DNA of 64,000 nt from Lytechinus pictus (lineage: Eukaryota). The position numbers and the translations under genes were made by a program. Of the stretch, positions 25,421 to 64,000 are shown in pieces; the first letter of the stretch is position 1, and each line of letters opens with the position of its first letter. Below the pieces are notes generated by a model. That model worked only from the letters and a program-made list of their open reading frames with translations. It had not been told where the DNA came from and searched no databases. Where the stretch lies: assembly GCF_037042905.1 (NCBI RefSeq), contig NC_087251.1:23190001-23254000 (forward strand), given 5' to 3'.

Positions 25421-25465
25421 ACCTCGAAATTTTCGGCTGCTAACTGCAACCTTCGTCAGCGATGT
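25421..25465 (-). ncRNA. Second hammerhead copy in the inverted pseudo-LTR
   Basis: Exact reverse complement of 27061-27105. Confidence 0.78.
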
Positions 25466-25522
25466 GACCCGATTTGACCTTAGTGACGTAATGGTCGATG
25501 ATCGGGTCGTAGACATTCGGAA

Positions 25523-27086: not shown

Positions 27087-27105
27087 CAGCCGAAAATTTC
27101 GAGGT
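27061..27105 (+). ncRNA. Minimal type I hammerhead ribozyme in the pseudo-LTR
   Basis: CUGACGA core, stem II GGUUGC/GCAGCC, GAAA, loopless palindromic stem III AAUU, stem I ACAUCG/CGAGGU (one mismatch). Confidence 0.8.
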
Positions 27106-37900: not shown

Positions 37901-40900
37901 GTTTCAACTTGACCAAATGTACAGTATTACTTGACCCTTTTAATACTAGTTTAGACACCAAAATCATATCCCCAATGTATATTATTAATGAACTATATTA
38001 TGTCCATATTGAAGTACCAACAGTCAATTTAGACCCCATTTTGAAGGCCATCTTGGATTTTTTAACATACCAGTCCACTGACTGTCCTCATAACTTGTTC
38101 TAATGCATTAAACCATGGTTTTATGATTATGGTTTAGACATCAAAATCATATTCCCCAGACAGATATTGAACAAACTATGCCCTAATTTATTATTTGACT
38201 CTTGAAAATATGGTTTAGACACCAGAATCACATCTCACAGGCGGATATAGAATGAACTATGCCAATTTTTAAGTAACAACAGTCAATTTTAGACCCCATT
38301 TTTGGAAGCCATCTTGGAATTTTGGACATACTAGACCACCGACTGTCCGTGTAAGTTTTTCTTAATGTATTATTGGCCTTTGAAATCATAGTTTAGACAC
38401 CAAAATCATATCTCACAGGTGAATATAAAATGAGCTATTCCACTTTTAAGTATCAGCAGCCATTTTATAATTATTGCCCTTTGAAATCATAGTTTAGACA
38501 CCAAAATCATATCTCACAGGTGAATATAAAATGAGCTATTCCACTTTTAAGTATCAGCAGCCATTTTATAATTATTTTCGGACATACCTGTCTGTCGTTG
38601 TAACTTGTCCTAATATTATTAGACTCTTGAAACCAATGATTTAGAGTCAAAATCACTTCCCCAGGGCCAATATGAAATGAGCTACGTCCACTTAAGGTAT
38701 CAGCAACCATTTTAGATTCAATTTTTTGAAGCCATCTTATGTTTTTGGACATTCCAGTCCACTGGCTGTCCCTGTAACTTGGCCCTATGTACTATTTGAT
38801 CCTTAATAACCAATGAATAAAAAACAAATTAAAGCCATTTTATGAAGTAATGGATGAGTTGTGGATTTTAGCATACGGCAGCCAGTGAGGGCACCATCTT
38901 GGATTTTCCTGTTACCCTGGAGTACTTAATTTTTCTTTTCAACCTTTCAACCAGTATAAAGGGTATTTAAATTTTTTAAATATTTTAATAAGTCTACTTG
39001 TCATGTAAAATTAGCAGTGAATAGATCATACTTCATGTTGATTCCATTCATATTCATGTTAATCTAAAAATTATCACAGCATTTCAAAATCTTCTTCGTC
39101 AAAATCAGTAGCGTAATTTGGAGGGGTCCAGATATGATGTATCGAGTGAAATGTATTTTTAAAAGTTGTCAGCTAGCCCAGCGAGGAGTAAAACCTTCGA
39201 AATTTTTCATTTTTTTTTACAAAAATAAAATTTTGGGTATAGTATTCGGAAAATAATCATATTTTATCCATCTCTCTTTCACTTTCTCTTTATTTTTTTC
39301 TTGGTAATGATTTTTTTGGGGTGGAGTGGGATTGCAGAATTCCCGGGAATTTTCTTGATGGAATCTTTTCATGGGTATAAACGGGAATTTTGTGGGAATT
39401 TTCAAGAAATGATGGGAATTTACAAAAAGTAACAATTTTCTATGCAGAAATTAACATGCATACCCTAGCAGATGATACTTGATGATTCTTTGCCTTCAAA
39501 TTTCAAGCCAGGTATTATGCTAAAACAGTCAGACAAAGCAAAATTTTAATGATTTCCATGTAAAAGTTGATTTACTGTATTTACTTTGATTAGGAGCTCA
39601 AGACCATGTCAACTCCTCAAATAGACTTAAGATTTTGATTTATCAACGCCTATAATCCCCTAATATATTGATATGATGAACGGCCTTAAAGCACAAATCA
39701 CACCAAGACGCTTTCTTCAAAATGGCAGCCTGCGAATACTTTGAACGAAATTGACCAGCGTCGAAATTAGAGTTTCGGGAATTTATTTGAGCCAAAAAAA
39801 GTCTGATATGATTTTTGTAGGTCTTATTTCGATGCCATGTATAATGAAATAAATTGGTGCTTATCATTTAGCATATTTATGTTCAGCACCCTCAAATAAG
39901 GGAAAAGGAAATAAAAATAAACATATTATTTTCATAAAAATTGGTACTTTTAAGGGACCATTGGCAACATTGATATTTATCATTATGTTCAAGCATTACC
40001 AAATCAACATATCGTAATGAAATCATGCATAACACTTAATGTGATTTTAAAATTAAAAGAGTAGGTCAAACCTTACACATATTAAGTTAATTTTATTGTA
40101 TTTTCCACCTGTCCATTATCTTGTCAGCCATGTTATTTTTTTGGAAAATTAAATGTTATTTTATTGCCATGGTAATGCCTTAAGATGTTATTTATACTTT
40201 TAACAACAGAGATGTACGTGTATGTTTGGCACCCTAAACTTAGTAGAATTGAATGAAAAATAAGATTCTACAAGGCATTTTTTAATCAAAGATGGTATTT
40301 TAGGGGGAATAAAATGACCCGTTGTCATGGGAACAGAACACACATTTGCAAACATTAATATTAAATTCAAGCATTACCAAGGCAACTGTCAGTTTTTATC
40401 ATGCTAATGAACTCATGCGGAACACTGTATTTTTTGTTCAAAACTTAATGACTGGTCAAACCTTATGTAGATTAAGTAAATCTTTACTTTACATTCCACC
40501 TGTCCATTATCATTTCAACTGTGTTAGTTTGTTTTAAAAATTATATCTTAAGTGGTTGCCATGGCAATGGCTGAAGATGTTATTTATTTATTAACAGCAA
40601 GCATATATATGCTTAGCTCCCTAAAATTGGGGCAAATGAAATAAAAATCAGATTTTACAATTTTGTGTTTTTCAAAGATGATACTTTTCTGGGGGGAATT
40701 GAGCTGTTGCCATGGCAACGGTACATTTGAAACACTAATATTTATCATTAAATTCAAGTATTACCAAGGCAACATCATTTTATTATTCGAATGAACTCAG
40801 AATACAGAACTCTTACTGAAATTTTTGTTCAAAAATTAAATGACTGGCCAAACCTTTCGCATATTGAGTTATTTGTAATTGTATTTTACACCTGTCCATA

Positions 40901-42365
40901 ATCTTGTCATCCCAATAATTTTTTTTTTGTATTAGATATTATCTGGTTGCCATGGCAATAGCTTCAGATGTTATACATTTTGCATCAAACATATCGATGT
41001 TTAGCACACTAAGATTAGGGGAAATGCAGTCCCTTTTTTAAGCATACAGATTAAGTCAATTCCACTTGTATTTTCCACCTGTCCATTGTCTTGTCAACCA
41101 TGTTATTTTTGTAAATTAGATGTTATTTGGTTGCCATGGCAATGGCTTAAGATGTTATATTTATAAATTTAGTCACAAACATATCTCGATTAGTACCTTT
41201 AAATTTGGGAAAATGGAATGATGATCATATCGTACATGTATTCTACATTTTTATCAATATGTTTACATTTCTAGAGGGAAATAAGCTGTTGCCATGGCAA
41301 CAGGCCCTTTGCAAAATTCAATTTAATTCAAGCTTTACCAAGGCAACATGATTTTTTTTATCTCTATAAAGAATTCCTGCAGAACACTTTCTGTACTTTT
41401 TGTTCAAATGAGAGGGGTCAAATCTTAAGCATACAGATTAAGTCAATTCCACTTGTATTTTCCACCTGTCCATTGTCGTGTCAACCATGTTATTTTTGTA
41501 AATTAGATGTTATTTGGTTGCCATGGCAATGGCCTAAGATGTTATATATATAAATTTAGTCACAAACATATCTCGAGTAGTACCTTTAAATTTGGGAAAA
41601 TGGAATGATGATCATATCGTACATGTATTCTACATTTTTATCAATATGTTTACCTTTCTAGAGGGAAATAAGCTGTTGCCATGGCAACGGGCCCTTTGCA
41701 AAATTGTTTCTTTTGAAATTTAATTCAAGCTTTACCAAGGCAACATGATTTTTTATCTTTATAAAGAACTCCTGCAGAACACTTTTTGTATTTTTTGTTC
41801 AAATGAGAGGGGTCAAAACTTAAGCATACATATTAAGTTAATTCCACTTGTATTTTCTACCTGTCCATTGTCTTGTCAACCATGTTATTTTTGTAAATTA
41901 GATGTTATTTGGTTGCCATGGCAATGGCTTGAGATGTAGTTTACACATTTAGCAACCAAAATATCTCCGATAAGCACTGTAAAGTTAGGGGAAATTAACG
42001 ATAAATCATATTCTACAACGTTTTTTAATCATTTTTTTACTTTGCTGGGGAAAAACAAGCCGTTGCCATGGCAACAGACCAATTGGAACTATCTTGATGA
42101 TCTTGAATATTTCTAAATATCATATGTATTCAATTGGGAGCCTGAAATTATTATTTTGGTCATCTATACCATGTTTATTTACCATTTACATGGGAATGCA
42201 TGTTATTTTGGAGAAATTAATCCGTTGCCATGGCAACGGCCGAAAATGGCATTTATAAATTTACCTCCCATCTTTAAAATAAATCTTACGGCATATACTA
42301 ATACTTGTGAAAGTTTCATGCTTTAGTCATAATTTGCACAATTGTTCGGCTAATCCGCTCTACTA
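34928..42365. mobile_element. Non-autonomous Academ-like DNA transposon
   Basis: tagtagagcggattagc / gctaatccgctctacta termini and ~0.9-kb TIRs; 3-bp TSD ccc (5 C in the uninterrupted mirror arm versus 4+4 here); no long ORF. Confidence 0.8.
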
Positions 42366-42734
42366 CCCCTGGTTCTGTTTGGAAAAACGCAGACAGCGAA
42401 AACGAAATCGGGTAGTTCGCTTTCCACTTCCTGCTCTCTGATTTCGTCTTTCGCACAACCAACAGCCTTATCGAAATACGTTATACACACGGGCACGCAG
42501 TACAGTGCATGCATGATACGACCATGAAGCTATTACGTAATAGCTTTATGTTACGACCACGTGCAACAAAAATTCACGTTAACATGGCTTTTAATTTCCA
42601 GCGTTTTCGGATCTTCACAGACAGTGGCGTAGCTAGGATTTTCCCTCCCCCGGGGGGGGGGGGGCAATGGGGGGGTCCTTGCTTTTTCAGGGGGGGGGGG
42701 CACCGGCCATTTTTGGCGGTGTGTGTGTAATAAA

Positions 42735-44397
42735 GTAATTTTTCAAGGGGCGCCCCAGGGATATCCCGACGGCCTAGCCAGGGTAACCACGTACCCTAAC
42801 TTGTAGAGCTCGACACGGGCAACCAGTTAAACACTGACTTGACCCGGCGCATGCACATTAAGGGGGCTCAAATTAACAAAATTAAAGGGAATAAAGGGCT
42901 ATTTATCGCATTTTTAAAATTAAAATAAAGTAAATTTTCAAGGGGCCCCAGGGATATCCCGACAGCCTAGCCAGGGTAACCACGTATCCTAACTTGGAGA
43001 ACTCGACTCGGGCAACCAGATAAACACTGATTTGACCCGGCGCATGCACATTTAGGGGGCTCAAATTAACAAAATTAAAGGGAATAAAGGGATATTTATC
43101 GCATTTTTAGATGATTAAACTAAAGTATTTTTTCAAGGGGCCCCCAGGGATATCCTGACGGCCTAGCCAGGGTAACCACGTATCCTAACTTATAGAACTT
43201 GACTCGGGCGATCAGATAAAAACTTATTTGACCCGGCGCATGCACATTTAGGGGGCTAAAATTAACAAAATTAAAGGGAATAAAGGGCTATTTATCGCAT
43301 TTTTTAAATTAAAATAAAGTATTTTTTCAAGGGGTCCCCAGGGATATCCCGACTGCCTAGCCAGGGTAACCACGTATCCTAACTTGTAGAACTTGACTCG
43401 GGCGATCAGATAAAAACTGACTTGACCCGGCGCATGCACATTTAGGGGGCTAAAATTAACAAAATTAAAGGGAATAAAGGGCTATTTATCGCATTTTTTA
43501 AATTAAAATAAAGTATTTTTTCAAGGGGCCCCCAGGGATATCCCGACGGCCTAGCCAGGGTAACCACGTATCCTAACTTGTAGAACTTGACTCGGGCGAT
43601 CAGATAAACACTGACTTGACCCGGCGCATGCACATTTAGGGGGCTAAAATTAAAGGGAATAAAGGGAATAAAGGGCTATTTATCGCATTTTTTAAATTAA
43701 AATAAAGTATTTTTTCAAGGGGCCCCCAGGGATATCCCGACGGCCTAGCCAGGGTAACCACGTATCCTAACTTGTAGAACTTGACTCGGGCGATCAGATA
43801 AACACTGACTTGACCCGGCGCATGCACATTTAGGGGGCTAAAATTAAAGGGAATAAAGGGCTATTTATCGCATTTTTTAAATTAAAATAAAGTATTTTTT
43901 CAAGGGGCCCCCAGGGATATCCCGACGGCCTAGCCAGGGTAACCACGTATCCTAACTTGTAGAACTTGACTCGGGCGATCAGATAAAAACTGACTTGACC
44001 CGGCGCATGCACATTTAGGGGGCTAAAATTAACAAAATTAAAGGGAATAAAGGGCTAATTATCGCATTTTTAAAATTAAAATAAAGTAAATTTTGAAGGG
44101 GCCCCCAGGGATATCCCGACGGCCTAGCTAGGGCAACCACGTACCCTAACTTGTAGAACTCGACTCGGGCAACCAGATAAACACTGATTTGATCCGGCGC
44201 ATGCACATTTAGGGGGCTCAAATTAACAAAATTAAAGGGAATAAAGGGCTATTTATCGCATTTTTAAAATTAAAATAAAGTAAATTTTGAAGGGGCCCCC
44301 AGGGATATTCCAACGGCCTAGCCAGGGTAACCATGTATCCTAACTTGTAGAACTCGACTCGGGCAACCAGATACACATTAGCTTGACCCGTTGCATG
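42735..44397. repeat. ~194-bp tandem array (about 8-9 units), left arm
   Basis: Repeated ...gggatatcccgacggcctagccagggtaaccacg...; spurious ORFs recur at 194-bp spacing. Confidence 0.92.
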
Positions 44398-46188
44398 CAG
44401 TGGCGTAACAGGGGTCGGTGGCTGGGGGGGGGGGCAAGAACCAAGAATTTCCCGGTCACATCATAAAGCAGGCAATGGAGTCATAAGGCAAAAATTTTGA
44501 GGGGGCGATATTATGGAGTATCGGACAAAAATATATATTTATGCGAGCGAGCGGAGCGTTCGAGCAAAATTTTTGACATTTTAATGGCAAAAATGAGTGG
44601 GGTCCGGGGTAGAGCCCCGGAACCTCTTGATATTAAAGCCATTTTAAACCTTACAGATGGCCACTAATTTTAATCAAATTGCGTGTATATTTATATAGCT
44701 TTCACACTACACATAAATTCAGTGCTGCAGTTGACAGTTGTGTACCGTAATCATCTAAATATTTTGAGGGGGTCTACCATAGCAAATGTGGGAAAATTTG
44801 TAAAAAGTCGGCAGCGAGCGAAACGAGCCAGAAGAAAAATGGCCTTTTGAAATAAAATTGAATTGTGTGATAGACTTTTACCTCACAGCAAATATCATGT
44901 CTTATATTTTTTTTATTTCATTCATCTCATTTCGCTGCCTCCTTCATATTCTTTTATTTCCCCTTGGCTGTGGAACCAATCCCCCCCCCCGTACGCCAGT
45001 GCTTCAACGCAATAGACTTTCATACGAAATTATGCTATATACCATCCATCTTTTTTTCCCGCTCGTTATCTTCAATCCTCAGCAGCCCGGTAGTAATATC
45101 TTGTCCCTTTTTTTTATTTTCCAATTTAGATTTTGCCTCATTCCATTCTACCTTCACTCGCTTTTGTTTGCCTTTATCATCTTTAATTTATTTCCCTGTC
45201 TTTTAAAATTATTTTGAAATTAAATTCTAATTATGTGATAGTCGCTTTGGAAATTTAGTCGATCAATCAATCAATCAATCAATGTAGTTGTGTACCGTTA
45301 TCATCCAAATATTTTGAGGGGGCACACCATAGCAAATGTGGGAAAATTTGTTTTAAAAAAAAGTCGCCAGCGAGCGAAGCGAGCCAGAAGAAAAATGGCA
45401 TTTTGAAATAAAATTATAATTATGTGATAGATTTTTACATCATAGCAAATGTCATGTCTTATATATTTTTTTAAATATTTTATTCATCTCATTACGCTGC
45501 CTCCTTCATTTTCTTTTATTTCCCCTTGGCTGTGGAACCCCCCCCCCCCGTACGCCAGTGCTTCAACGGAAGGATCCATATAGGGGGCCGTTATAGAACC
45601 CTTTAAAGGTTACAGGTTAAGAGCCTCCACTGCACGGGGTCTTGACTCTTGGACAGAGCCCCCGGTAGCTTTGGATATTTAGCAAGTTTATAATAGACTT
45701 TCATACGAAATTATGCTATATACCATCCATCTTTTTTCCCTCTCGTTATCTTCAATCCTCAGCAGCCCATCTTGTCCCTTTTTTTTATTTTCCAATTTAG
45801 ATTTTGCCTCATTCCATTCTACCTTAATTTCCCGCTTTTGTTTGCCTTTTTGTCATCTTTAATTCATTTCCCTGTCTTACTAATCATGCTAATGTATGTG
45901 TATATCTGGGAAAATTGTTCTTCCTCACATGTTCTTCTTTCCTTCCTTTTTCCAAATTCTTTCCGTTTTCCCTTTTTTTTCCTTAGTTTTATTTTCCCTT
46001 ACCCTTTTCTATTCCCCTCCCTTTTCCCCCTTTCATCTTTTTTCCTTTCCTTTTCCTTTCCCTTTCTTTCTTTCTCCCCTTATTTTTTCCTTTTCCCGGT
46101 TTTTTTTTCTTAACATTTTCAGGTGAACTCCGCCAGGGGGAAGGGGGGCAGCTTGCCCCCCCCCCCCCCCCCGCCTGTTACGCAACTG
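44398..46188. mobile_element. Non-autonomous hAT-like element with 8-bp TSD
   Basis: gttgcatg|cagtggcgtaacagg ... cctgttacgcaactg|gttgcatg, inserted in a 194-bp unit. Confidence 0.82.
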
Positions 46189-47928
46189 GTTGCATGCTCA
46201 TTATGGGGGCTAAAATTAACAAAAGTAAAGGAATACGGGCTTTTTCAAGCATGGGGAACCACGGTCCTGACTTTTCCCCCCATCCCTTAGTGCTGCCGAT
46301 GGGTAGAGTAAAAAACAACAAGGAAAGAGAGAAGACAAAATAGAAGAGAGAGAAGCGAAAGGGAGAGATAGGAAAGAAAAGGAGGGGGAAAGGGAGAGAA
46401 AGAGAAGGGAGAACGGAGGGGTCATATCATTGTATGAACAGGATATTTTATGATTATGCCCCGAGCATTAGTGCGAAGCTCAATGCGAGATAAGAACAAA
46501 ATAGAGGGGGCACACCATGGCGCACGCAGCAAAAATTTGCTTAATAATAAGTCTCCAGCGAGCGAAGCGAGCGAGAAGAAAAATCACCTTCAATTTTGAG
46601 ATTGATTTTGACATGGTATGCAGAAAATGACATATCTTTCCTCTTCCTTTTCTTTCTTTCCTTTTATCATTTTTTTTTCTCGGTTGTAGAACTTTTTTTT
46701 TTGGGGGGGGGCAGTGCTATGCGGTTCGGGTCCGGTGCAATGACGGTACTAGGGTTTTTAACCTAGGAGGAGGCAAACAAACATTTTGGGGCCGGGGGGA
46801 TGGCACACATTTTAAAAAAAAATCGAGCGAGAAGCGCGAGCTAATTTTATTGCAAATGCAGTCCCTACTGATTTAAAAAGGGAACTGTTAAGAATCAGCT
46901 GTTTGCATTAATTGGGTCATGAAGATGATATCTCACCAAATGAATAATGCGAGCGCGAAGCGTGAGCTGAAAATTTTTGATATCCGGGATGATACCTGGC
47001 CGTTCTAAGCTTTTTTTTAATTATAAAATGAATGGCTATCTAATTCGCTGAAAATAAATCCTCTATGGAAATTATGAATACGCAGGATATGTATCTCGCT
47101 AAAACAAATAATGAAAACTCTAATAACATTTGATTTTTAAGCCCCATGTGAACAGATAATCATTAATAACTGCGAGCGCGTATCGCGAGCTACATTTTGA
47201 ATTTTATATAATGGCCTGAAAGATTTATGTTAGTGACCAAAATTGTTGGGACCTAAATGCTAACGGTGAATGGATGAGAATATTTGTAAAATTTAAAGAA
47301 CAAAAAACATTTTTGTAGTATTATGACAACGTTTACTATACATTTTGTTTCTTCAAATTTCGGGGGGGGGGGCAACTCACTGAAGACTCCCCATTCGGTG
47401 GCGCCACTGGTCTGGGGCGGAGCCCCCAGAACCTCGTGATATTTTTAAACATTGCAGATGGCCATTTTTTTTTTAAAATCAAATCGCGGGTACATACATC
47501 ACATATTATATTAAGTTGCTAATTAATTGAATTGAAGGCTACACGTGCAAAAGAAAATGTCTCATGAGAATTATTCGAAGATTTGAGGAGCTTTATACTC
47601 ATATTTTATATTTTGACAATACGTTTTCTATCGATATACGCCCCCATCTTTTCTCCAAGAGATGACGATCTACAACAGAAGGCTGAAGATATTCATTCGA
47701 CCCAACCCATTCTCATTTTTTTAATTTGTAAGTTGATTACAAAAAAGAATATGTATAATGATTAGACTGATTCTAGAAACAGAGAATGGGCAACCATTGA
47801 ACATATTTTGTGCAAATAAAAGAAAAATACAGGTGTCACTCAGCTTTCGGAACTATTTTATTGGCGGAGGATTTAGGACTGAGTATAATATATGAATAAG
47901 ATCTGCTCATGAGATGCTTTAACCAGTT

Positions 47929-49025
47929 GCCCCCTAAATGTGCATGCGCCGGGTCAAGCTAGTGTTTATCTGGTTGCCCGAGTCGAGTTCTCCAAGTTAG
48001 GGTACGTGGTTACCCTGGCTAGGCCGTCGGGATATCCCTGGGGGCCCCTTGAAAAAATACTTTTAATTTAAAAAATGCGATAAATATCCCTTTATTCCCT
48101 TTACTTTTGTTAATTTGAGCCCCCTAAATGTGCATGCACCGGGTCAAGCTAGTGTTTACCTGGTTGCCCGAGTCGAGTTCTACAAGTTAGGATACGTGGT
48201 TACCCTGGCTAGGCCGTCGGGATATCCCTGGGGGGCCCCTTGAAAAATACTTTATTTTAATTTTAAAAATGCGATAAATAGCCCTTTATTCCCTTTAATT
48301 TTGTTAATTTAAGCCCCATAAATGTGCATGCGCCGGGCCAAGCTAGTGTTTATCTGGTTGCCCGAGTCGAGTTCTACAAGTTAGGATACGTGGTTACCCT
48401 GGCTAGGCCGTCGGGATATCCTTCGGGGCCCCTTGAAAAAATACTTTATTTTAATTTTAAAAATGCGATAAATAGCCCTTTATTCCCTTTAATTTTGTTA
48501 ATTTGAGCCCCCTAAATGTGCATGCGCCGGATCAAATCAGTGTTTATCTGGTTGCCCGAGTCGAGTTCTACAAGTTAGGGTACGTGGTTGCCCTGGCTAG
48601 GCCGTCGGGATATCCCTGGGGGCCCCTTGAAAATTTACTTTATTTTAATTTTAAAAATGCGATAAATAGCCCTTTATTCCCTTTAATTTTGTTAATTTTA
48701 GCCCCCTAAATCATGCATGCGCCGGGTCAAGTCAGTTTTTATCTGATCGCCCGAGTCAAGTTCTACAAGTTAGGATACGTGGTTACCCTGGCTAGGCCGT
48801 CGGGATATCCCTGGGGGCCCCTTGAAAAAATACTTTATTTTAATTTAAAAAATGCGATAAATAGCCCTTTATTCCCTTTACTTTTGTTAATTTGAGCCCC
48901 CTTAATGTGCATGCGCCGGGTCAAGTCAGTGTTTATCTGGTTGCCCGTGTCGAGCTCTACAAGTTAGGGTACGTGGTTACCCTGGCTAGGCCGTCGGGAA
49001 ATCCCTGGGGCGCCTCTTGAAAAAT
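47929..49025. repeat. ~194-bp tandem array (about 5-6 units), inverted, right arm
   Basis: Reverse complement of the 42735-44397 units. Confidence 0.92.
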
Positions 49026-49893
49026 TACTTTATTACACACACACCGCCAAAAATGGCCGGTGCCCCCCCCCCCCCCTCTGAAAAAGCAAGGACCCCCCAT
49101 TGCCCCCCCGGGGGGGGGGGAATCCTAGCTACGCCACTGTCTGTGAAGGTCCGAAAACGCTGGAAATTAAAAGCCATGTTAACGTGAATTTTTGTTGCAC
49201 GCGGTCGTAACATAAAGCTATTACGTAATAGCTTCATGGTCGTATCATGCACGCACTGTACTGCGTGCCCGTGTGTATAACGTATTTCGATATGGCTGTT
49301 GGTTGTGCGAAAGACGAAATCAGAGAGCAGGAAGTGGAAAGCGAACTACCCGATTTCGTTTTCGCTGTCTGCGTTTTTCCAAACAGAATCAGGGGGTAGA
49401 AAGCGTGTTCTGATTTTGTTTTTAATATATAACAAACACAGGTATAGAATGAGGTATCAGAGAGGACCAAAAGTATTTCTGATTTCATTCTTCTGTTTTT
49501 GATCTCCAAAAATGAAATCACAACGGGGGTTTTCTCGTTGTGATCTCGTTTTTGTGTTTTCAAAGACCAATCAATGAGGTTGACTTCCGTTTTTGCTCTA
49601 CGAAAATCAGGAATGAAAAACGAATTATCCATTAGTACCCTGATTCACTAACCCGTCTCTGTGGTCGAATGGTTAATACCTCAGTCACATTTCCTGTACA
49701 CGGCCGCCTTACGGCGAGTCGAAAACTTCCGTTTTATCTAACTTTATTCAAACCACCCATATATATGAAGCTGGTACAAAAAAAATAAACGGCTGTTTTC
49801 GACTCGCCATACGATCCCCTGCGGGTTCGGGGATTAGAGAATAGGCCCGCTGTATTCTCTGCATGTCGTAAGAGGCGACTAAAAGAGACAGTA

Positions 49894-50871: not shown

Positions 50872-52162
50872 ATGGCTAATTTCAACAAACAATCCAATAA
50901 GCGGAGTAGAAGTAATTCCAATGATGGTACTGAGCCAGTTAACTTCCCACATTTTCTGGTCATTCAGGGTAGTGATCCAAATAAACCACTCAAACTATCG
51001 CCATTTGCTATAAATAAAGGTGTCGAGTCATTAGCTGGACCTGTGAAATCAATCAAAAGGTTAAGATCAGGTGATATTCTGGTGGAAGTCGAGAGAGCTG
51101 GTCAGGCGAGTAATTTGCTCAAGACCGACAAATTTGTCAATATTCCTATTAAAGTCTCACCTCATAAGACCTTAAACTCGTGTAAAGGGGTAGTTCGCTG
51201 CCCTGAACTTAGAGACTGCGACGATGATGAAATTCTTGAGGAACTTGCTGATCAGCAAGTAATCGATGTCCATAGAGTAACAGTCAATCAGAATGGAATT
51301 AAGAAACCAACTAATACCTTGTTTCTAACCTTTAACAGATCTACCATTCCTCCATATATCAAGGTTGGCTATTTGCGAGTTAAGGTGGATATTTACATCC
51401 CAAACCCCATTCGATGCTTCAAGTGCCAAAAATTTGGCCATTTCAGGAGCTATTGTCAACTGAATGAGTGTTGTGAGAATTGTGGCAAGGATGATCATAC
51501 TGGCTCTCCCTGCCAAGTTCCATCAAAGTGTATTAACTGTGGTGGCAGTCATCCTGCTAATTCTCGGTCGTGTCCAAAATGGATCGAGGAGAAAAGAATC
51601 CAAGAATTGAAAGCTTTGGGTAACCTATCCTGTATCCTATCCTGAAGCACGGAAGCTGTATCAAACACAACATACTCAAAGTTGTTCATACGCAGATAAG
51701 ACCAAACAAAGTACTGGAGGAACTAATCAACAATCTAAATTAACTCAACAGCCTAAGGCTACAGCTACTACCCAAACTGACATAACTTGGTTAAATGGTG
51801 ATTTCCCTGTGACTCTTGAAAATAATAAAGCAACAAATACAGAGAAACCTAAATCTCAAACTAAAAAACAAGATCAACAGAAGAAGGGGCAGACTAAGAC
51901 TAAGGATGGTCGTCGAAGTCGAAGTCTCTCACGGGATCCTCCCACTAGAAATACTTCAAGTAATCAAGAAACTAAAAAACCATCAACTAAAGTGAAAAGT
52001 AAACCTCAGATAAATGTATCAAAACCAAAGTTAACTGACTCAGTAGTAACTAAAAATAAATATGATGTATTATCAATTGAGAGAGATGATGATATGGATA
52101 TTTCTCCAATTCATCAACCCTCCTCTAAAATTAAATTGGTTCAAAAATTAGATAATACGTAA
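50872..52162 (+). pseudogene. LINE ORF1 nucleic-acid-binding protein, frameshifted near 51630
   Basis: CFKCQKFGH...C, CENCGKDDH...C, CINCGGSH...C; small duplication tatcctg/tatcct breaks the frame; basic tail continues to TAA 52160-52162, directly abutting the ORF2 ATG. Confidence 0.85.
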
Positions 52163-54719
52163 ATGTATTATCATGGGAAGGAAAAAGCCGTTGTTCAATG
52201 GAACTGTCGAGGAGTAAAACCTAATTATGAGGAAATCAAATGTCTTTTACTTAATCATAATCCATATGTTATGTGTTTACAAGAAACATTTTTGAGAGAT
52301 TCAGATAATATTTCATTTAGGGGTTATGATATGTTTAATAAAACTAGTACTTCTTTGATAGATGGTAGACCTATTAGAGGTTCATCAATATTGATTAAGA
52401 AAGGAGTTCCACATGAAGCTCTTGAACTTCATACTAATCTACAAGCTGTTGCAGCTAAGATAACCCTCCACTGCACTTTTACAATATGTTCCATATATAT
52501 TCCACCTAGACATGAGCTTTCAGAAGCTGAATTAGTTAGACTAGTTAACCAGCTTCCTGTACCTTTTTTGTTAGTAGGGGATTTTAATGCTCACAGTTCC
52601 CTTTGGGGCTGTCAGAACTCAAATAGATTAGGTAATATTGTTGAGCTAATGCTTGAACATTTTGATTTATGTCTTTTAAATGATGATTCTCCTACATATC
52701 TTCATCCAGCTTCTGGTTCCATGACGGCTATCGATATATCTATTTGTTCACCTAATATTTTTATGGATTTCCAATGGAAAGTCCATAGTGAACAATGTGG
52801 TAGCGATCACTTCCCTATTCTTATTGAAATTGTAAGACCTTTACCAGAGGAAAAAGTTCCTAAATGGCAACTTCACAAAGCAAATTGGGATGCTTTCTCA
52901 AATCAGTGTTTATTAAATATTAATAATGGTAATTTTCAGGATACAGAGGATCCTCTTGCTTTGTTTTCTCATACATTACTTGATATAGCTACCAATACGA
53001 TACCAAAATCTGGTTCTTCTCATCGTAAACATAATCCTTGGTTTAATGCTGAATGTAAAGAAGCTGTTAAATGTCGTAAAAAGGCCTTAAGGAAATTTAA
53101 AAAATACCCAAATAATAACAATTTGCGAAAATATCGAGAAACAAGAGCAAAGACACGCAATATTATCAAGAAAAATAAACGTCAATCTTGGAAAAATTAT
53201 GTTTCTAAACTGAATATTCATACTCCCATTAATAAAGTGTGGGAAATGGTGAGGAAAATATGTGGAAAACATCTGAGTAATTCTGTATCTTATTTGACTA
53301 AATCGGATGGTGATAAATGTACAGAAAGGACAGATATTGTTAATTTACTGGCAGAGGAATTCGAACATAACTCATCATCTAATCATTACTCTCCTACATT
53401 TCAGATTTATAAAAATCAAGCAGAAAGTCAGGAACTCAATTTTTTATCAAATAATGTAAAGGATTATAATATCCCATTTACTATCTCTGAGTTGAAAAAC
53501 TCACTCGGTAAATGTCATGATACTGCAACTGGTCCAGATGAAATTCATTATCAATTTTTAAAACATCTACCAGAAGCATCTCTTTTAGTTCTTTTAGATA
53601 TATTTAACAAAATTTGGAGAACAGGTGACTTCCCAGATTCGTGGCGGGAAGCTATCATTATTCCTATTCCGAAACCTGGTAAGGACACATCTAAGCCTAC
53701 GAATTATCGTCCCATCTCTTTGACTAGTTGTCTTTGTAAAACCATGGAAAGAATGATTAATGCCCGATTAGTTTGGTTCTTGGAGAAGCGTGGTTTGATT
53801 TCAAAGTTTCAAAGTGGTTTTCGTCATAATCGAAGCACTGTTGATCAACTTATTCGACTTGAATCTTTCATTCGTGATGGCATTATTCGAGGTCACCATG
53901 TGGTATCTGTCTTTTTTGATCTTGAAAAGGCCTATGATACTACTTGGAAGTATGGAATTATGAGAGACCTTTTCAATCTTGGGTTGAGGGGCAGGTTGCC
54001 CATTTTCATTCAGAATTTTCTTTCGAATCGTGTGTTTCGAGTCCGCCTAGGGTCAACTTTTTCAGAATTACACAATCAGGAAATGGGTGTTCCTCAAGGT
54101 AGCATACTTTCTGTTACTTTGTTCTTATTGAAGATCAATAGCATTGTTGACGTTGTAAATCCTAGGTTTGATAAGTCCTTGTTTGTGGACGACTTCTGTA
54201 TTTCTTGTTCGTCACGAAATATGTCGACCATTGAAACAGTATTACAAAATTGTCTAAATAGAATTGAAAGGTGGGCAGATGAGAATGGTTTCCGCTTTTC
54301 AAAAACCAAGACAGTTTGTGTACATTTTTGTACTAAACGATCAGTGCATCCAGATCCTAAAATTAGAATAAATGGCTCTATCATTCCTATAGTTCAACAA
54401 ACTAAATACCTAGGCTTAATCTTTGATAATAAACTCAATTTTAAAGCTCATATTGATTATGTAAGACAAAAGTGTCATAAAGCTTTAAATCTTTTGAAGG
54501 TTGTGTCCAAAATGGATTGGGGTGCTGATCGCATTGTCCTCCTCCGTTTATATAGATCTTTAGTTAGATCTAAGCTTGATTATGGCAGTGCAGTTTATAG
54601 TTCCGCCCGAAAGTCATATCTTGAAAAATTGAAACCCATACAGAATCAAGGACTTCGACTTTGTCTAGGAGCATTTCGTACATCTCCTATGGAGAGTCTT
54701 TATGTGGAGGCTAATGAAC
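52163..54719 (+). CDS. LINE ORF2: AP endonuclease + reverse transcriptase (C-terminally broken)
   Basis: QWNCRG, LQET, GDFNAH, SDHFPI; GPDEI, YRPISL, FFDLEKAYD, GVPQGS, FVDD, KYLG. Confidence 0.93.
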
Positions 54720-54724
54720 TAAAA

Positions 54725-56357
54725 GAAAAGAGGAGTAGGTTTTTTAACGTGCAAATGGTGTGACTCTCCCTTACACGGGACCGACGGCTTAGAGTCTCCT
54801 CCGAAAGACTAGACAATTGGAATAAAATACCTTGCCCAAGGGTATACCTGTTGTGATTGGGAATCGAACAGTTTCCCACCTAAAATCTAATAAACAGATT
54901 GATCTCCTTTAGGAAATTTACAATACATAATCGTGAAATATCTCTAAATAATATCTTAAGGTCAGGAACATCATAAAAGTTAGTACGAATATGTGCAAAA
55001 TCAGCACATTCAATGAGGATGTGTTTTACTGTAAGTGTACAATTACATGATATGCATTGAGGTGGATTTTCTCCTGCAAATAAATATGCATGTGTTAAGT
55101 GAGAATGTCCAATACGAGCACGGGTCAATACAATGTCTTCCCGTCGTTTAGCTAATGGAAGAGTATTTTGTGATTCAAGTCTTGGTTGGTGTTGATGGAG
55201 TTTATTATTAGGATTTAGATCCCATGATGTTTGCCATTTATTTCTAATATAAGTATTAACCTTTGATTTTAGATCAGTGTAAGGTATCTGTATTTCTGTT
55301 ATATCCAGATCTAAAGCTTCTTTAGCTAACTTATCAGCTTTTTCATTACCTTGAATACCTGTCTGGCTTGGTATCCAAACAAATATTATTCGTTTATCTA
55401 GTGTATTAAGTTTATACAGAATTTCCAATAACTGAACAATATAAGGATGTTTATGATTTCTATTTTGTAATGCCGTTAAAGAAGACAAAGAATCTGTATA
55501 AATAACAAAAAGTCTACCGACACAGTTTTCTACAACACCTAAAGCCATTTTCAAAGCTAATAACTCATCAGTATATATGGAAGAACTATCTGGCAATCTA
55601 ACTTGTCTTTGTATAGGACCACTGATACAAGCCGCACCTACTTTATTCTGGTGTTTTGATCCATCTGTATAGATTGCACGATAATTACTATATTTATGTC
55701 TCATTTCTCCAAATTTATTTAGGAAAACTAAATCACTTGTAAAACCCTTTTTATATGTTCTTAGTGTAAAATCAATTACTGGTTCAGCAATCATCCATGG
55801 TGGCATATTAGATATCAAGGAAGGAGCTACGTTAGTAGCATCCAGTATATGTGTTAAAGCTTCTTTCGTACGTAAACCAAAAGTTTTGATGGCTGATGGT
55901 TTACTAGTATAAAAATTAATATATCGTGGCGTGAATGTACAATCATATGTCGGATTATGAGAGTTATTTTTTAACTTTATCGCATAGTGTAAAGAGAGTT
56001 TTTCGTATCTTAGATGTAAGGGGGGTTCATTAGCCTCCACATAAAGACTCTCCATAGGAGATGTACGAAATGCTCCTAGACAAAGTCGAAGTCCTTGATT
56101 CTGTATGGGTTTCAATTTTTCAAGATATGACTTTCGGGCGGAACTATAAACTGCACTGCCATAATCAAGCTTAGGTCTAACTAAAGATCTATATAAACGG
56201 AGAAGGACAATGCGATCAGCACCCCAATCCATTTTGGACACAACCTTCAAAAGATTTAAAGCTTTATGACACTTTAGTCTTACATAATCAATATGAGCTT
56301 TAAAATTGAATTTATTATCAAATATTAAGCCTAGGTATTTAGTTTGTTGAACTACAG
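54725..56357 (-). mobile_element. 5'-truncated LINE copy B (end of RT, RNase H, CCHC, partial 3' UTR), inverted
   Basis: ORF 54880-56397: KYLG..., IYTDGSK, YTDS, WIPS, GNEKAD, CISC...H...C; several substitutions relative to copy C. Confidence 0.9.
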
Positions 56358-57870
56358 GATTGATTGATTGATAAAAATTTAACGACACTATCAACACATG
56401 CGTGTCATATAAGTGTCGGACAGTTAATCTGGAAAGGTTACTATAATACAGTACAAATTACCCTAATGCAACTTTACAAAGGAACAGGATTATAAATAAG
56501 TGATTATCAGCAATAAATTAATATGTTAACTACTTCCCCGGGATAACTTCCCTACTCTTTACGAAAAGAGGAGTAGGTTTTTTAACGTGCAAATGGTGTG
56601 ACTCTCCCTTACACGGGACCGACGGCTTAGAGTCTCCTCCGAAAGACTAGACAATTGGAATAAAATACCTTGCCCAAGGGTATACCTGTTGTGATTGGGA
56701 ATCGAACAGTTTCCCACCTAAAATCTAATAAACAGATTGATCTCCTTTAGGAAATTTACAATACATAATCGTGAAATATATCTAAATAATATCTTAAGGT
56801 CAGGAACATCATAAAAGTTAGTACGAATATGTGCAAAATCAACACATTCAATGAGGATGTGTTTTACTGTAAGTGTACAATTACATGATATGCATTGAGG
56901 TGGATTTTCTCCTGCAAATAAATATGCATGTGTTAAGTGAGAATGTCCAATACGAGCACGGGTCAATACAATGTCTTCCCGTCGTTTAGCTAATGGAAGA
57001 GTATTTTGTGATTCAAGTCTTGGTTGGTGTTGATGGAGTTTATTATTAGGATTTAGATCCCATGATGTTTGCCATTTATTTCTAATATAAGTATTAACCT
57101 TTGATTTTAGATCAGTGTAAGGTATCTGTATTTCTGTTATATCCAGATCTAAAGCTTCTTTAGCTAACTTATCAGCTTTTTCATTACCTTGAATACCTGT
57201 ATGGCTTGGTATCCAAACAAATATTATTTGTTTACCTAGTGTATTGAGTTTATACAGAATTTCCAATAACTGAACAATATAAGGATGTTTATGATTTCTA
57301 TTTTGTAATGCCGTTAAAGAAGACAAAGAATCTGTATAAATAACAAAAAGTCTACCGACACAGTTTTCTACAACACCTAAAGCCATTTTCAAAGCTAATA
57401 ACTCAGCAGTATATATGGAAGAACTATCTGGCAATCTAACTTGTCTTTGTATAGGACCACTGATACAAGCCGCACCTACTTTATTCTGGTGTTTTGATCC
57501 ATCTGTATAGATTGCACGATAATTACTATATTTATGTCTTATTTCTCCAAATTTATTTAGGAAAACTAAATCACTTGTAAAACCCTTTTTATATGTTCTT
57601 AGTGTAAAATCAATTACTGGTTCAGCAATCATCCATGGTGGAATATTAGATATCAAGGAAGGAGCTACGTTAGTAGCATCCAGTATATGTGTTAAAGCTT
57701 CTTTAGTACGTAAACCAAAAGTTTTGATGGCTGATGGTTTACTAGTATAAAAATTAATATATCGTGGCGTGAATGTACAATCATATGTCGGATTATGAGA
57801 GTTATTTTTTAACTTTATCGCATAGTGTAAAGAGAGTTTTTCGTATCTTAGATGTAAGGGGGGTTCATTA
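56358..57870 (-). mobile_element. LINE 3' part (copy C: RNase H, 3' UTR, (AATC)n tail), inverted duplicate
   Basis: Mirror of 62335-63847. Confidence 0.9.
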
Positions 57871-58069
57871 TGAGGCGCCGAATGTACCAATATTATATAG
57901 AACAATTATTTGTTATATAATCATTATTTATTAAATAATAACTATTATTTATATATAATTTACATTTTATTTGTAAATAACTACTATTATATAAAATATC
58001 ATTTCTAATTATTTATATATAATTCCAAGTAATACTTCATTATTTGTAAATAATAATAGTTCGACATTC

Positions 58070-58835
58070 CATTATTTATAAATAATGATTATTTGTTTTT
58101 CATTATTTATAAATAATGATTATTTGTTTTTCATTATTTATAAATAATGATTATTTGTTTTTCATTATTTACAAATAATGATTATTTGTTTTTCATTATT
58201 TATAAATAATGATTATTTGTTTTTCATTATTTATAAATAATGATTATTTGTTTTTCATTATTTACAAATAATGATTATTTGTTTTTCATTATTTATAAAT
58301 AATGATTATTTGTTTTTCATTATTTATAAATAATGATTATTTGTTTTTCATTATTTATAAATAATGATTATTTGTTTTTCATTATTTACAAATAATGATT
58401 ATTTGTTTTTCATTATTTATAAATAATGATGATTTGTTTTTCATTATTTATAAATAATTTGTTGAGTTTTCCATTATTTATAAATAATGATTATTTGTTA
58501 AATAATGAAAACGTCTACTTCATTATTTATAAATAATTTTTTCGAGTGCACCATTATTCTCATTATTTATAAATAATCATTATTTAATGTTCGAGTTTTC
58601 CATTATTTATAAATAAAGATTATTTGTTAAATAATGAAATATCTACTTCATTATTTATAAATAATAATTTTGTTTCAATATCCCATTAATCATTATTTAT
58701 AAACAATTTTTACAGTTTGCCATTATATACAAATAACCATTATTTATTAAATAATGCCATTATTTATTAAATAATGCCATTATTTATTAAATAATGCCAT
58801 TATTTATTAAATAATGCCATTATTTATTAAATAAT
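58070..58835. repeat. 31-bp AT-rich minisatellite (about 12 units) followed by 20-bp repeats
   Basis: (ttatttataaataatgattatttgtttttca)n and (ataatgccattatttattaa)x4. Confidence 0.92.
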
Positions 58836-59544
58836 GGAAAACTCGCTATAACATGCAAATGTGGGACCGCCCATGATATGAATATTCATGATGCGATTTC
58901 CTTTTTCGTGATTTTTCTTCACAAATTTTTGTCCATTTCCTCTTCATAATGACATTTCTTGAAGCAATTTTCTAGGGATATGGTCTGATTGTAATATTCT
59001 TCATTTTCTATATAACTTCGTCTTCGTAGAAATATAAAAAAGTGTAATTTTATACGATTTTTCCTACAGTTCACAATCCCCATAGGCGCGCGTGTACGGT
59101 AGGGACAACCGGTGAATCGACGGAGTGCTCTTCATCGAAATACTACGTTGGTTGGTCCCCGGAAGTGGCGGGCGGAATTTAGCCCGAATCCTCGATGGAA
59201 GTCGATCAAGTGCATATGAGCTGAGAGAGTGAAATATCAGTGTACTTGTACAGGCCCTTCTACTTTTTATAAATATTTCTTGTTGCTTTTTTTGTTAAGT
59301 TAATTTTTCCTGGTGTAGAGATAAGTTTCAGTTCTAATAATGCACTTCAAATACATTTTGGAGTGTCTGTTTGAGGCGTTTGGGGCGATTTCACCCTGGC
59401 CCCAAAATGCTCGCAACGACAATACGGGGGCATGATGACCCCTAAATTTTTAAAAACTTATTTTTCTATTGAAAATTATCACAAAATTCACCAAAAGTGT
59501 GCACGAAAGCCTTCGTATTTCACTTTTAAAACTCCATAAAGTGC

Positions 59545-60211
59545 CCAAATGACAAGCTTGGTCGCTTCGCTGTGTCGCATTCAACTTGAGAACGTTTACG
59601 CGTCTGCTTCGATATATCCCCCCCCCCCTCCTCCGAAAGAAATTCTGTATACGGCCATGCTCTAAAGAGCCTGGCACATTGATTTATGTATACTTTCATT
59701 TTCATTATTTTTATCTCATTATCAACATGGCCTTACGCAGAATTTTTTCCAGGGGGGCCGGGGCCGGAGCATGACGCGCGTAAACTTTCTCAAAAAAATC
59801 TTGAAAGCGAGACAGCCACGGGACCAAGCCCAAATGACAAGCTTGGTCGCTTCGCTGTCTCGCATTCAACTTGAGAACGTTTACGCGTCTGCTTCGATAT
59901 ATCCCCCCCCCCCCCCCCCTCCTCCGAAAGAAATTCTGTATACGGCCATGCTCTAAAGAGCCTGGCACATTGATTTATGTATACTTTCATTTTCATTATT
60001 TTTATCTCATTATCAACATGGCCTTACGCAGAATTTTTTCCAGGGGGGCCGGGGCCGGAGCATGACGCGCGTAAACTTTCTCAAAAAAATCTTGAAAGCG
60101 AGACAGCCACGGGACCAAGCCCAAATGACAAGCTTGGTCGCTTCGCTGTCTCGCTTTCAACTTGAGAACGTTTACGCGCGTCTGCCCCCACCCCCCGAAA
60201 GAAATTCTGTG
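59545..60211. repeat. ~291-bp tandem units in the left arm
   Basis: gcccaaatgacaagcttggtcgcttcgc recurs at ~59545, ~59830 and ~60120. Confidence 0.85.
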
Positions 60212-61388
60212 TAAGCTAGGCCATGATGATAATGTGATAAAAATAATGAAAATGAAAAGTACATATAAATCAATGTGCCATATGCTCTTTTGAGCATGGC
60301 CGTTCACAGAATTTCTTTCGGGGGGTGGGGGCAGACGCGCGTAAACGTTCTCAAGTTGAAATCGAGACAGCGAAGCGACCAAGCTTGTCATTTGGGCTTG
60401 GTCCCGTGGCTGTCTCGCTTTCAAGATTTTTTTGAGAAAGTTTACGCGCGTCATGCTCCGGCCCCGGCCCCCCTGGAAAAAATTCTGCGTAAGGCCATGT
60501 TGATAATGAGATAAAAATAATGAAAATGAAAGTATACATAAATCAATGTGCCAGGCTCTTTAGAGCATGGCCGTATACAGAATTTCTTTCGGAGGAGGGG
60601 GGGGGGGATATATCGAAGCAGACGCGTAAACGTTCTCAAGTTGAATGCGACACAGCGAAGCGACCAAGCTTGTCATTTGGGCACTTTATGGAGTTTTAAA
60701 AGTGAAATACGAAGGCTTTCGTGCACACTTTTGGTGAATTTTGTGATAATTTTCAATAGAAAAATAAGTTTTTAAAAATTTAGGGGTCATCATGCCCCCG
60801 TATTGTCGTTGCGAGCATTTTGGGGCCAGGGTGAAATCGCCCCAAACGCCTCAAACAGACACTCCAAAATGTATTTGAAGTGCATTATTAGAACTGAAAC
60901 TTATCTCTACACCAGGAAAAATTAACTTAACAAAAAAAGCAACAAGAAATATTTATAAAAAGTAGAAGGGCCTGTACAAGTACACTGATATTTCACTCTC
61001 TCAGCTCATATGCACTTGATCGACTTCCATCGAGGATTCGGGCTAAATTCCGCCCGCCACTTCCGGGGACCAACCAACGTAGTATTTCGATGAAGAGCAC
61101 TCCGTCGATTCACCGGTTGTCCCTACCGTACACGCGCGCCTATGGGGATTGTGAACTGTAGGAAAAATCGTATAAAATTACACTTTTTTATATTTCTACG
61201 AAGACGAAGTTATATAGAAAATGAAGAATATTACAATCAGACCATATCCCTAGAAAATTGCTTCAAGAAATGTCATTATGAAGAGGAAATGGACAAAAAT
61301 TTGTGAAGAAAAATCACGAAAAAGGAAATCGCATCATGAATATTCATATCATGGGCGGTCCCACATTTGCATGTTATAGCGAGTTTTC

Positions 61389-62135
61389 CATTATTTAATA
61401 AATAATGGCATTATTTAATAAATAATGGCATTATTTAATAAATAATGGCATTATTTAATAAATAATGGTTATTTGTATATAATGGCAAACTGTAAAAATT
61501 GTTTATAAATAATGATTAATGGGATATTGAAACAAAATTATTATTTATAAATAATGAAGTAGATATTTCATTATTTAACAAATAATCTTTATTTATAAAT
61601 AATGGAAAACTCGAACATTAAATAATGATTATTTATAAATAATGAGAATAATGGTGCACTCGAAAAAATTATTTATAAATAATGAAGTAGACGTTTTCAT
61701 TATTTAACAAATAATCATTATTTATAAATAATGGAAAACTCAACAAATTATTTATAAATAATGAAAAACAAATCATCATTATTTATAAATAATGAAAAAC
61801 AAATAATCATTATTTGTAAATAATGAAAAACAAATAATCATTATTTATAAATAATGAAAAACAAATAATCATTATTTATAAATAATGAAAAACAAATAAT
61901 CATTATTTATAAATAATGAAAAACAAATAATCATTATTTGTAAATAATGAAAAACAAATAATCATTATTTATAAATAATGAAAAACAAATAATCATTATT
62001 TATAAATAATGAAAAACAAATAATCATTATTTGTAAATAATGAAAAACAAATAATCATTATTTATAAATAATGAAAAACAAATAATCATTATTTATAAAT
62101 AATGAAAAACAAATAATCATTATTTATAAATAATG
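61389..62135. repeat. Mirror copy of the 20-bp and 31-bp arrays
   Basis: Reverse complement of 58070-58835 with one fewer 20-bp unit. Confidence 0.92.
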
Positions 62136-62334
62136 GAATGTCGAACTATTATTATTTACAAATAATGAAGTATTACTTGGAATTATATATAAATAATTAG
62201 AAATGATATTTTATATAATAGTAGTTATTTACAAATAAAATGTAAATTATATATAAATAATAGTTATTATTTAATAAATAATGATTATATAACAAATAAT
62301 TGTTCTATATAATATTGGTACATTCGGCGCCTCA

Positions 62335-63847
62335 TAATGAACCCCCCTTACATCTAAGATACGAAAAACTCTCTTTACACTATGCGATAAAGTTAAAAAA
62401 TAACTCTCATAATCCGACATATGATTGTACATTCACGCCACGATATATTAATTTTTATACTAGTAAACCATCAGCCATCAAAACTTTTGGTTTACGTACT
62501 AAAGAAGCTTTAACACATATACTGGATGCTACTAACGTAGCTCCTTCCTTGATATATAATATTCCACCATGGATGATTGCTGAACCAGTAATTGATTTTA
62601 CACTAAGAACATATAAAAAGGGTTTTACAAGTGATTTAGTTTTCCTAAATAAATTTGGAGAAATAAGACATAAATATAGTAATTATCGTGCAATCTATAC
62701 AGATGGATCAAAACACCAGAATAAAGTAGGTGCGGCTTGTATCAGTGGTCCTATACAAAGACAAGTTAGATTGCCAGATAGTTCTTCCATATATACTGCT
62801 GAGTTATTAGCTTTGAAAATGGCTTTAGGTGTTGTAGAAAACTGTGTCGGTAGACTTTTTGTTATTTATACAGATTCTTTGTCTTCTTTAACGGCATTAC
62901 AAAATAGAAATCATAAACATCCTTATATTGTTCAGTTATTGGAAATTCTGTATAAACTCAATACACTAGGTAAACAAATAATATTTGTTTGGATACCAAG
63001 CCATACAGGTATTCAAGGTAATGAAAAAGCTGATAAGTTAGCTAAAGAAGCTTTAGATCTGGATATAACAGAAATACAGATACCTTACACTGATCTAAAA
63101 TCAAAGGTTAATACTTATATTAGAAATAAATGGCAAACATCATGGGATCTAAATCCTAATAATAAACTCCATCAACACCAACCAAGACTTGAATCACAAA
63201 ATACTCTTCCATTAGCTAAACGACGGGAAGACATTGTATTGACCCGTGCTCGTATTGGACATTCTCACTTAACACATGCATATTTATTTGCAGGAGAAAA
63301 TCCACCTCAATGCATATCATGTAATTGTACACTTACAGTAAAACACATCCTCATTGAATGTGTTGATTTTGCACATATTCGTACTAACTTTTATGATGTT
63401 CCTGACCTTAAGATATTATTTAGATATATTTCACGATTATGTATTGTAAATTTCCTAAAGGAGATCAATCTGTTTATTAGATTTTAGGTGGGAAACTGTT
63501 CGATTCCCAATCACAACAGGTATACCCTTGGGCAAGGTATTTTATTCCAATTGTCTAGTCTTTCGGAGGAGACTCTAAGCCGTCGGTCCCGTGTAAGGGA
63601 GAGTCACACCATTTGCACGTTAAAAAACCTACTCCTCTTTTCGTAAAGAGTAGGGAAGTTATCCCGGGGAAGTAGTTAACATATTAATTTATTGCTGATA
63701 ATCACTTATTTATAATCCTGTTCCTTTGTAAAGTTGCATTAGGGTAATTTGTACTGTATTATAGTAACCTTTCCAGATTAACTGTCCGACACTTATATGA
63801 CACGCATGTGTTGATAGTGTCGTTAAATTTTTATCAATCAATCAATC
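62335..63847 (+). mobile_element. LINE 3' part (copy C) completing the element begun at 49814: RNase H + CCHC, 3' UTR, (AATC)n tail
   Basis: Starts NEPPLHLR in continuity with ...YVEANE; stop at 63487; tail atcaatcaatcaatc 63833-63847. Confidence 0.9.
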
Positions 63848-64000
63848 CTGTAGTTCAACAAACTAAATACCTAGGCTTAATATTTGATAATAAATTCAAT
63901 TTTAAAGCTCATATTGATTATGTAAGACTAAAGTGTCATAAAGCTTTAAATCTTTTGAAGGTTGTGTCCAAAATGGATTGGGGTGCTGATCGCATTGTCC
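63848..64000 (+). mobile_element. Start of 5'-truncated LINE copy B, runs off the window
   Basis: Mirror of 56205-56357; VVQQTKYLGLIFDNK. Confidence 0.88.

Follow-up and report, generated by a model that had tools for sequence, protein, structure and literature searches.

The 3′ UTR of a Nimb-type LINE in the 64,000-nt stretch of Lytechinus pictus DNA analysed here (the window) is SINE-derived, and this architecture is probably family-wide. Behind the ORF2 stop (63485-63487), the UTR contained in order a B box, CORE, Nin/Deu, an AT-rich spacer, a Nimb-type stem-loop and ATC(AATC)3, with all coordinates given in Table 1. We consider it likely that this UTR belongs to a Nimb-type LINE family, small and young, in which a 5′-truncated SINE of the tRNA-CORE-Nin type was captured. 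Observed in favour of capture were the order of the modules, the native stop codon, the absence of an A box and the presence of the ORF2-UTR junction in an independent contig. The block should not be called a SINE in its own right, as it departs from SINEs in two defining features: it lacked a complete Pol III head, with no A box match having one mismatch or less nearer than 63213, and it was not a free non-coding unit but was fused to ORF2 in all three window copies as well as in the sequencing runs X2 and X8.

Table 1. Positions of the LINE, the modules of its 3′ UTR and the neighbouring copies in the window, with the basis of each assignment.
Feature	Position	Strand	Basis
LINE 5′ end, ~70-nt hallmark of Nimb-clade elements	49816..49882	+	by eye
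ORF1, three Cys/His knuckles, frameshifted near 51630	50872..52162	+	translations
ORF2 5′ part, AP endonuclease and reverse transcriptase, ends abruptly at ...VEANE	52163..54719	+	Pfam PF14529, PF03372, PF00078
'Copy B', first 155 nt of the tandem copy's UTR, cut by junction	54725..54879	-	100% over 155 nt
Tandem copy's ORF2 3′ segment	54880..56367	-	sequence comparison
Mirror copy of whole UTR, left palindrome arm	56358..56717	-	100% over 360 nt
Palindromic AT-rich element splitting ORF2	57871..62334	.	8-nt direct repeat 54712-54719 / 62335-62342 at both break points
ORF2 3′ part, RNase H and Cys/His motif, up to native stop	62335..63487	+	Pfam PF00075
10-nt linker from stop to B box, LINE remnant or decayed T-arm	63488..63497	+	also in runs X2 and X8
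Pol III B box without A box	63498..63507	+	motif scan
5′ half of CORE domain	63526..63554	+	22/29 ungapped versus BivaCORE-SINE2_MiYe, by eye
Nin/Deu domain, 3′ limit approximate	63555..63665	+	published rows, by eye
AT-rich spacer, 26% GC	63676..63785	+	base composition; some diverged X24 reads run into the spacer
Terminal two-stem hairpin, Nimb/I type	63786..63823	+	-14.1 kcal/mol (predicted)
Microsatellite tail ATC(AATC)3	63833..63847	+	same repeat type behind the stem in L004
First part of second ORF2 segment, in tandem, with microhomology at the join to the tail	63838..64000	+	96% identical to 54377-54539

Modules of the 3′ UTR

A preliminary description of this DNA had placed a B box ten bases past the ORF2 stop, and GTTCGATTCC was indeed present at 63498-63507, as were the quoted CCTTGGGCAAGG from 63526, the middle block and the ATC(AATC)3 at 63833-63847. 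By itself this B box was at chance level (three matches in the window versus 3.0 expected), with all three matches being copies of the same UTR. All four sequencing runs that were aligned in detail had A at 63504 (three of four reads in X24), which gives GTTCGAATCC as the canonical B box of the family. ARAGORN detected no tRNA, no Rfam family matched 63300-64000 significantly (best E 0.086) and the whole UTR folded no better than shuffled sequences (z 0.40). Internal T runs (63540, 63638 and 63828) were dropped as evidence against Pol III usage, because true SINEs can have such runs. The terminal Phe of ORF2 was invariant in 16 of 16 aligned proteins, and the SINE-like block thus starts at most 10 nt from the native stop.

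The CORE segment followed 18 nt behind the B box, with the corresponding distance being 21 nt in BivaCORE-SINE2_MiYe. As judged by eye, the ~65-nt CORE domain was represented only by its 5′ ~29 nt, with the remainder replaced by Nin; CCTTGGG is named as a conserved CORE motif in the available text of PMC5786205. For the Nin/Deu domain, identities counted by eye against rows printed in paper supplements amounted to 31 of 37 columns for 63558-63594 versus the bivalve Deu block of BivaMD-SINE1_NuNu (far above chance; that element has 110 bp of Deu/Nin), 18 of 19 for 63555-63573 and 14 of 16 for 63614-63629 versus Lsa_Nin_1, and 12 of 15 columns for 63641-63654 versus Lottia_Nin. By the same comparison the UTR had what characterizes the Nin/Deu superfamily, namely a Nin domain of ~70-120 nt in central position, with homology to the published rows. 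These rows supported the Deu/Nin identity that the preliminary description had suggested for the middle block, while both the nature of the CCTTGGG block as the 5′ half of CORE and the Nimb-type 3′ stem-loop had escaped it.

Scanning genome-contig and viral-contig collections with a Nin motif gave no matches, a second Nin motif scan gave two phage matches that we put down to chance, and phage records gave no match. Within the window, one weak match (11621-11662, E 0.018) was also considered, together with AATC runs close to 9600 and to 45270, but none of these contained a SINE when the sequence was read.

The UTRs of related LINEs were AT-rich, like the spacer, and a 3′ hairpin followed by a microsatellite, a feature of the Nimb clade, was present as judged against these UTRs. 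The predicted hairpin is likely to be the recognition signal for ORF2p. In its outer stem, GACAC/GTGTC corresponds to GGCAC/GTGCC in the relatives through compensatory change, with five of five pairs kept in 15 of 16 relatives, a count biased towards pairing because the search was anchored on the motif; five of 21 rows had been left out of it (three near-duplicates, one at a contig end and one spurious). RNAalifold returned the inner stem only (-1.15 kcal/mol, two of five pairs with compensatory changes), because the outer stem had been misaligned. The tail, compared by eye, matched the bivalve SINE BivaV-SINE1_MyCa in 35 of 48 columns and LINE L001 in 29 of 42, thus being about equally like both and compatible alike with replacement of the LINE UTR and with insertion into it.

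The LINE and its copies in the window

Three features of the Nimb clade could be recognized in the LINE, counting the hairpin with its microsatellite. The 5′ end, compared by eye with the 'Nimb-17 homology' rows in the available supplement of PMC4758252, had an identical start and 17 of 17 matches at 49866-49882, in agreement with the conserved ~70-nt 5′ end of Nimb-17_LMi, and Pfam assigned AP endonuclease, RT and RNase H to ORF2. According to the accessible parts of PMC4758252, one RTE element likewise has a ~70-nt Nimb-type 5′ end, and this hallmark is compared there with the terminal 77-nt promoter/ribozyme sequence of ingi and L1Tc; the 5′ end studied here matched no ribozyme family of Rfam. 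ORF1 had no Pfam match at E≤0.001, and the 5′ part of ORF2 was 87% identical to P0004 across 815 aa. The preliminary description had called the LINE autonomous, which holds for its architecture but not for the copy in the window, having a frameshifted ORF1 and a split ORF2. Neither an intact full-length copy nor a target-site duplication of the LINE was seen among the window copies and the run contigs, the latter being fragments.

The element that splits ORF2 includes 31-nt and 20-nt minisatellites and a 291-nt central repeat. Since its arms are almost identical, this palindrome is perhaps a very recent inverted duplication, possibly through aberrant DNA transposition, or else an assembly fold-back. 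The larger palindrome at 56205-64000 was near-perfect, with one mismatch in 1666 nt and none in 761 aligned nt of its inner part. The fusion behind copy B, earlier described as independently diverged, was identical over the 155 nt compared and lay within this local tandem-plus-inverted duplication. Both tandem copies had G at 63472 and T at 63504, where contigs from X1, X2 and X8 had T and A, and they are thus one local lineage; copy B was therefore rejected as independent evidence. The ORF2 part of copy B differed at 11 of 1153 positions, and these two synonymous and nine non-synonymous changes would seem to reflect neutral decay.

The LINE tail joins the internal ORF2 of the second copy via ATCAATCC/ATCATTCC microhomology, at 63838-63847 and again at 56358-56367, which could be due to either self-insertion or tandem duplication. 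A piece from X1 starting at 63841 had normal ORF2 upstream, unlike the join in the window. Among metagenome loci, L008, L068 and L073 had near-identical LINE 3′ ends, and two ORF2 ends each were found in L008 and L073, so that tandem or nested copies are not unique to the window.

Other repeats and frames were noted in the window. A decayed RT-like reading frame at 25332-27245, with a perfect 165-nt inverted repeat (25364-25528 / 26998-27162), presumably resembles a Penelope-like element, and from its translation we take an exon-like frame at 15451-15906 to resemble a potassium-dependent sodium/calcium exchanger. At 34676-49645 there was a large inverted repeat of nested structure, including tandem arrays (~194-nt and ~390-nt), and within it 42359-44399 and 47929-49400 were about 93% alike.

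The fusion and its modules beyond the window

Parts of the stretch were contained in 20 of 24 listed public runs, four of which (X1, X2, X8 and X24) were aligned in detail, and the fusion was found in runs bearing different organism labels. In X2 a single contig (record 8) spanned 63485-63487 as part of an alignment from 62900 to 63726, with seven other letters and no gap, this being the only listed record in the four runs to bridge the stop with at least 31 letters on either side. The seven letters were majority alleles shared with X1 and X8, and the contig had no allele private to either window copy, whereby it would represent a consensus-like copy or a collapsed set of copies. In X8, record 13 (depth 134.5) ran unbroken from ORF2 into the linker (63276 to 63497), and bin arithmetic implied that one more contig, with a depth of 216.5, started at 63468 and reached 63491 or beyond; the listed UTR contigs of that run had depths of 252, 308 and 211 and a mid-ORF2 variant had 38, with the ORF2 end being ~3% diverged. 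These depths, although contig depth in a run does not equal copy number, fit a family of multiple copies where ORF2 precedes the UTR start in most cases.

Two observations in X1 counted against a family-wide fusion: the junction itself (63477-63498) was uncovered, and one contig of similar depth had foreign sequence upstream of the linker, so that it could be a free element or else a copy that is truncated or interrupted. In the same run four contigs left the tail into differing flanks (agreement 0.6). The notion that the block travels with the LINE, for which the preliminary description had relied on copy B, is hence backed instead by the bridging contig of X2, by X8 and by these varied flanks. 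RNA reads of X24 were few over the stop region (depth 1 to 1.8); their first mates lay on the minus strand, as is expected of sense RNA with most stranded library types.

The Nin/Deu domain was common to other repeat families in X24, with 68 of 81 aligned reads matching only in part. One group of reads shared a Nin core of ~35 nt and then continued into other Deu-like sequence, 31 reads being loose before 63588 and 27 behind 63623; at 63588-63623, a transcribed Deu/Nin family distinct from the UTR gave most of the RNA reads. A second group was characterized by linked substitutions in the CORE block at 63538-63553 (four of 11 reads) and by four reads with a different sequence before 63526, and a related contig in X8 had a depth of about 1017. 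Diverged reads of X24 also spanned 63665-63703. Repeat families having a CORE-Nin body thus exist and are transcribed, and they are possible donors; the head of a donor SINE, with its A box, was not recovered from the X24 reads, whose loose ends were only 30 letters long.

For comparison with related LINEs, 80 metagenome loci were used, 34 of which gave 36 ORF2 ends with a stop. The terminal-stem motif was reached within 600 nt by 21 of the 36 UTRs (one probably spurious), and a B box, CORE or Nin motif was found in none of those 21, nor did blastn and nhmmer with 63488-63675 give any match in the 36 UTRs. The relatives compared in this manner were 32-55% identical at the ORF2 C-terminus. Closer protein relatives at 71-80% identity exist, and no closer LINE relatives were found by scans of the genome-contig and viral-contig collections.

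Origin of the UTR and relation to known systems

Whether the SINE domain was captured by the LINE or donated by it had been left open in the preliminary description, and capture is now much better supported. Donation, i.e. that the CORE and Nin domains of SINEs derive from the 3′ UTRs of such LINEs, has parallels in RTE and Vingi cases where pieces of LINE UTRs supply the middles of SINEs (PMC5786205, available text). We nonetheless find it very unlikely, because the block has a tRNA-type B box at SINE spacing, the modules were found in none of the 21 relatives, and Nin is more than 600 million years old in SINEs with L2/CR1 partners, whereas this LINE family is young. It is also quite unlikely that the fusion is an accident of this locus, with a truncated SINE having landed downstream of the stop in a single dead LINE copy and having multiplied solely by the local tandem and inverted duplication. 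Such an accident would agree with the single lineage of the three window copies, with their private alleles at 63472 and 63504, and with the uncovered junction and foreign upstream sequence of X1, but it accords poorly with a bridging contig in X2 free of those alleles, with an ORF2 end in X8 that continues into the linker at depths (134-216) well above the 38 of the variant contig, and with the finding of no second, native UTR or terminal hairpin behind the tail.

A rather unlikely alternative is that the UTR is an old lineage trait, resulting from an ancient capture, with CORE-Nin UTRs also in sister LINE families of the host group. In that case the family of ~90% similarity in X24 would represent a sister LINE, with modules passing between these LINEs and SINEs in both directions. 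The diverged X24 reads, which have CORE, Nin and probably some of the spacer in common with the UTR but another sequence ahead of 63526, point in that direction, as do the different organism labels of the runs with the fusion and the ~3% divergence of the ORF2 end in X8. The related contig of X8 was, however, several times deeper than the LINE's own pieces and in this sense SINE-like, the more distant relatives had the modules in none of 21 cases, and the B box of the family is still canonical, which suits a recent capture.

Capture of a truncated SINE by a young LINE family most likely proceeded by template switching, which is the accepted route to SINE hybrids. Priming by the reverse transcriptase would have taken place on the Nimb-type tail of a SINE RNA, and after copying as far as the B box the enzyme would have switched to the LINE RNA at the stop codon. 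That switch would have replaced the old LINE UTR, which we hold to be somewhat more probable than insertion of a SINE fragment between the stop and the native UTR. Since ORF2 had stayed intact and the 3′ hairpin had retained its Nimb type, retrotransposition of the chimera in cis could have continued, and, as there is no A box, the SINE part would be a passenger in the LINE transcript rather than a Pol III unit. As a tentative extension, an active LINE lineage might stably carry CORE and Nin in its 3′ UTR and thereby bridge SINE-LINE tail exchange, with Nin homology letting the RT switch between LINE and SINE RNAs, through which SINEs of the Deu type would receive the Nimb tail.

A young, self-copying LINE would in this case have acquired as its 3′ end the body of a short element, together with an ancient conserved domain known until now from short elements only. 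According to papers of 2016 and 2018, no such domain had been found in LINEs. A role of SINE domains in swapping tails with LINEs was rated less likely in the available text of PMC5804259, because no such domain was known in a LINE, and the accessible part of PMC5786205, comparing Repbase LINEs with SINEs, gave no source of the conserved bodies and mentioned only a tRNA-like piece in RTE-1_DAn and the possible recombinant Ingi-3_AC. No report of a LINE with a Nin/Deu 3′ UTR was found in the literature covered, which did not extend to Repbase, to Dfam or to the majority of subscription journals and which included the available parts of PMC4824008, PMC4758252, PMC11481361, PMC3747384, PMC3899998 and PMC7245038; examples may exist in further supplements, among them the PMC11481361 libraries. 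The conservation of SINE body domains over hundreds of millions of years is still in need of an explanation, and a young LINE family with CORE and Nin beside transcribed families of the same body makes the tail-swap proposal testable, with regards to the date of capture, whether the domain is kept or decays once free of Pol III, and whether SINEs regain a tail from the LINE. For annotation, it should be kept in mind that Deu matches can sit within LINE consensus sequences.

The mechanism of chimera formation is itself well known, and the UTR works like known retrotransposon chimeras. BovB LINE lineages, like the LINE described here, have been reported with SINE-derived ends, the SINE pieces in that case being themselves RTE-derived and not pan-animal conserved domains. 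The order of B box, CORE and Nin/Deu is also that of BflSINE1, a CORE and Deu hybrid SINE of lancelet, which like the sea urchin Deu SINE SINE2-3_SP was compared by its description in the available parts of PMC4824008, PMC5804259 and PMC3747384; these two are free and tRNA-headed with Crack or CR1 partners, whereas the UTR has no A box, is fused to ORF2 and ends in a Nimb-type tail. Nimb-clade LINEs, as described in the accessible text of PMC4758252 and PMC11481361, have in common the ~70-nt 5′ hallmark, an endonuclease-RT-RNase H ORF2 and a hairpin with a microsatellite tail, and the same sources report Nimb partners for V and Meta SINEs, not for Deu, as well as LP-SINEs, in which a Nimb 5′ end is joined to a partial Nin body and which are non-coding, unlike the LINE studied here. 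Ingi-3_AC (PMC5786205, available text) is a LINE likewise proposed to have gained sequence by recombination with a SINE, as a possible LINE/Ceph-SINE recombinant, but its gained piece is RTE-derived, lies in the 5′ UTR and is neither CORE nor Nin. The closest published case, as far as described in the accessible part of PMC6887750, is MER6/MER6A, where a V-domain SINE lies within a Mariner MITE, so that, as in the UTR, a conserved SINE domain is a passenger spread by another mobile element. The carrier in MER6 is a non-autonomous DNA transposon with a nearly whole V-SINE, whereas the carrier here is a protein-coding LINE in which the SINE part constitutes the 3′ end of the RNA.
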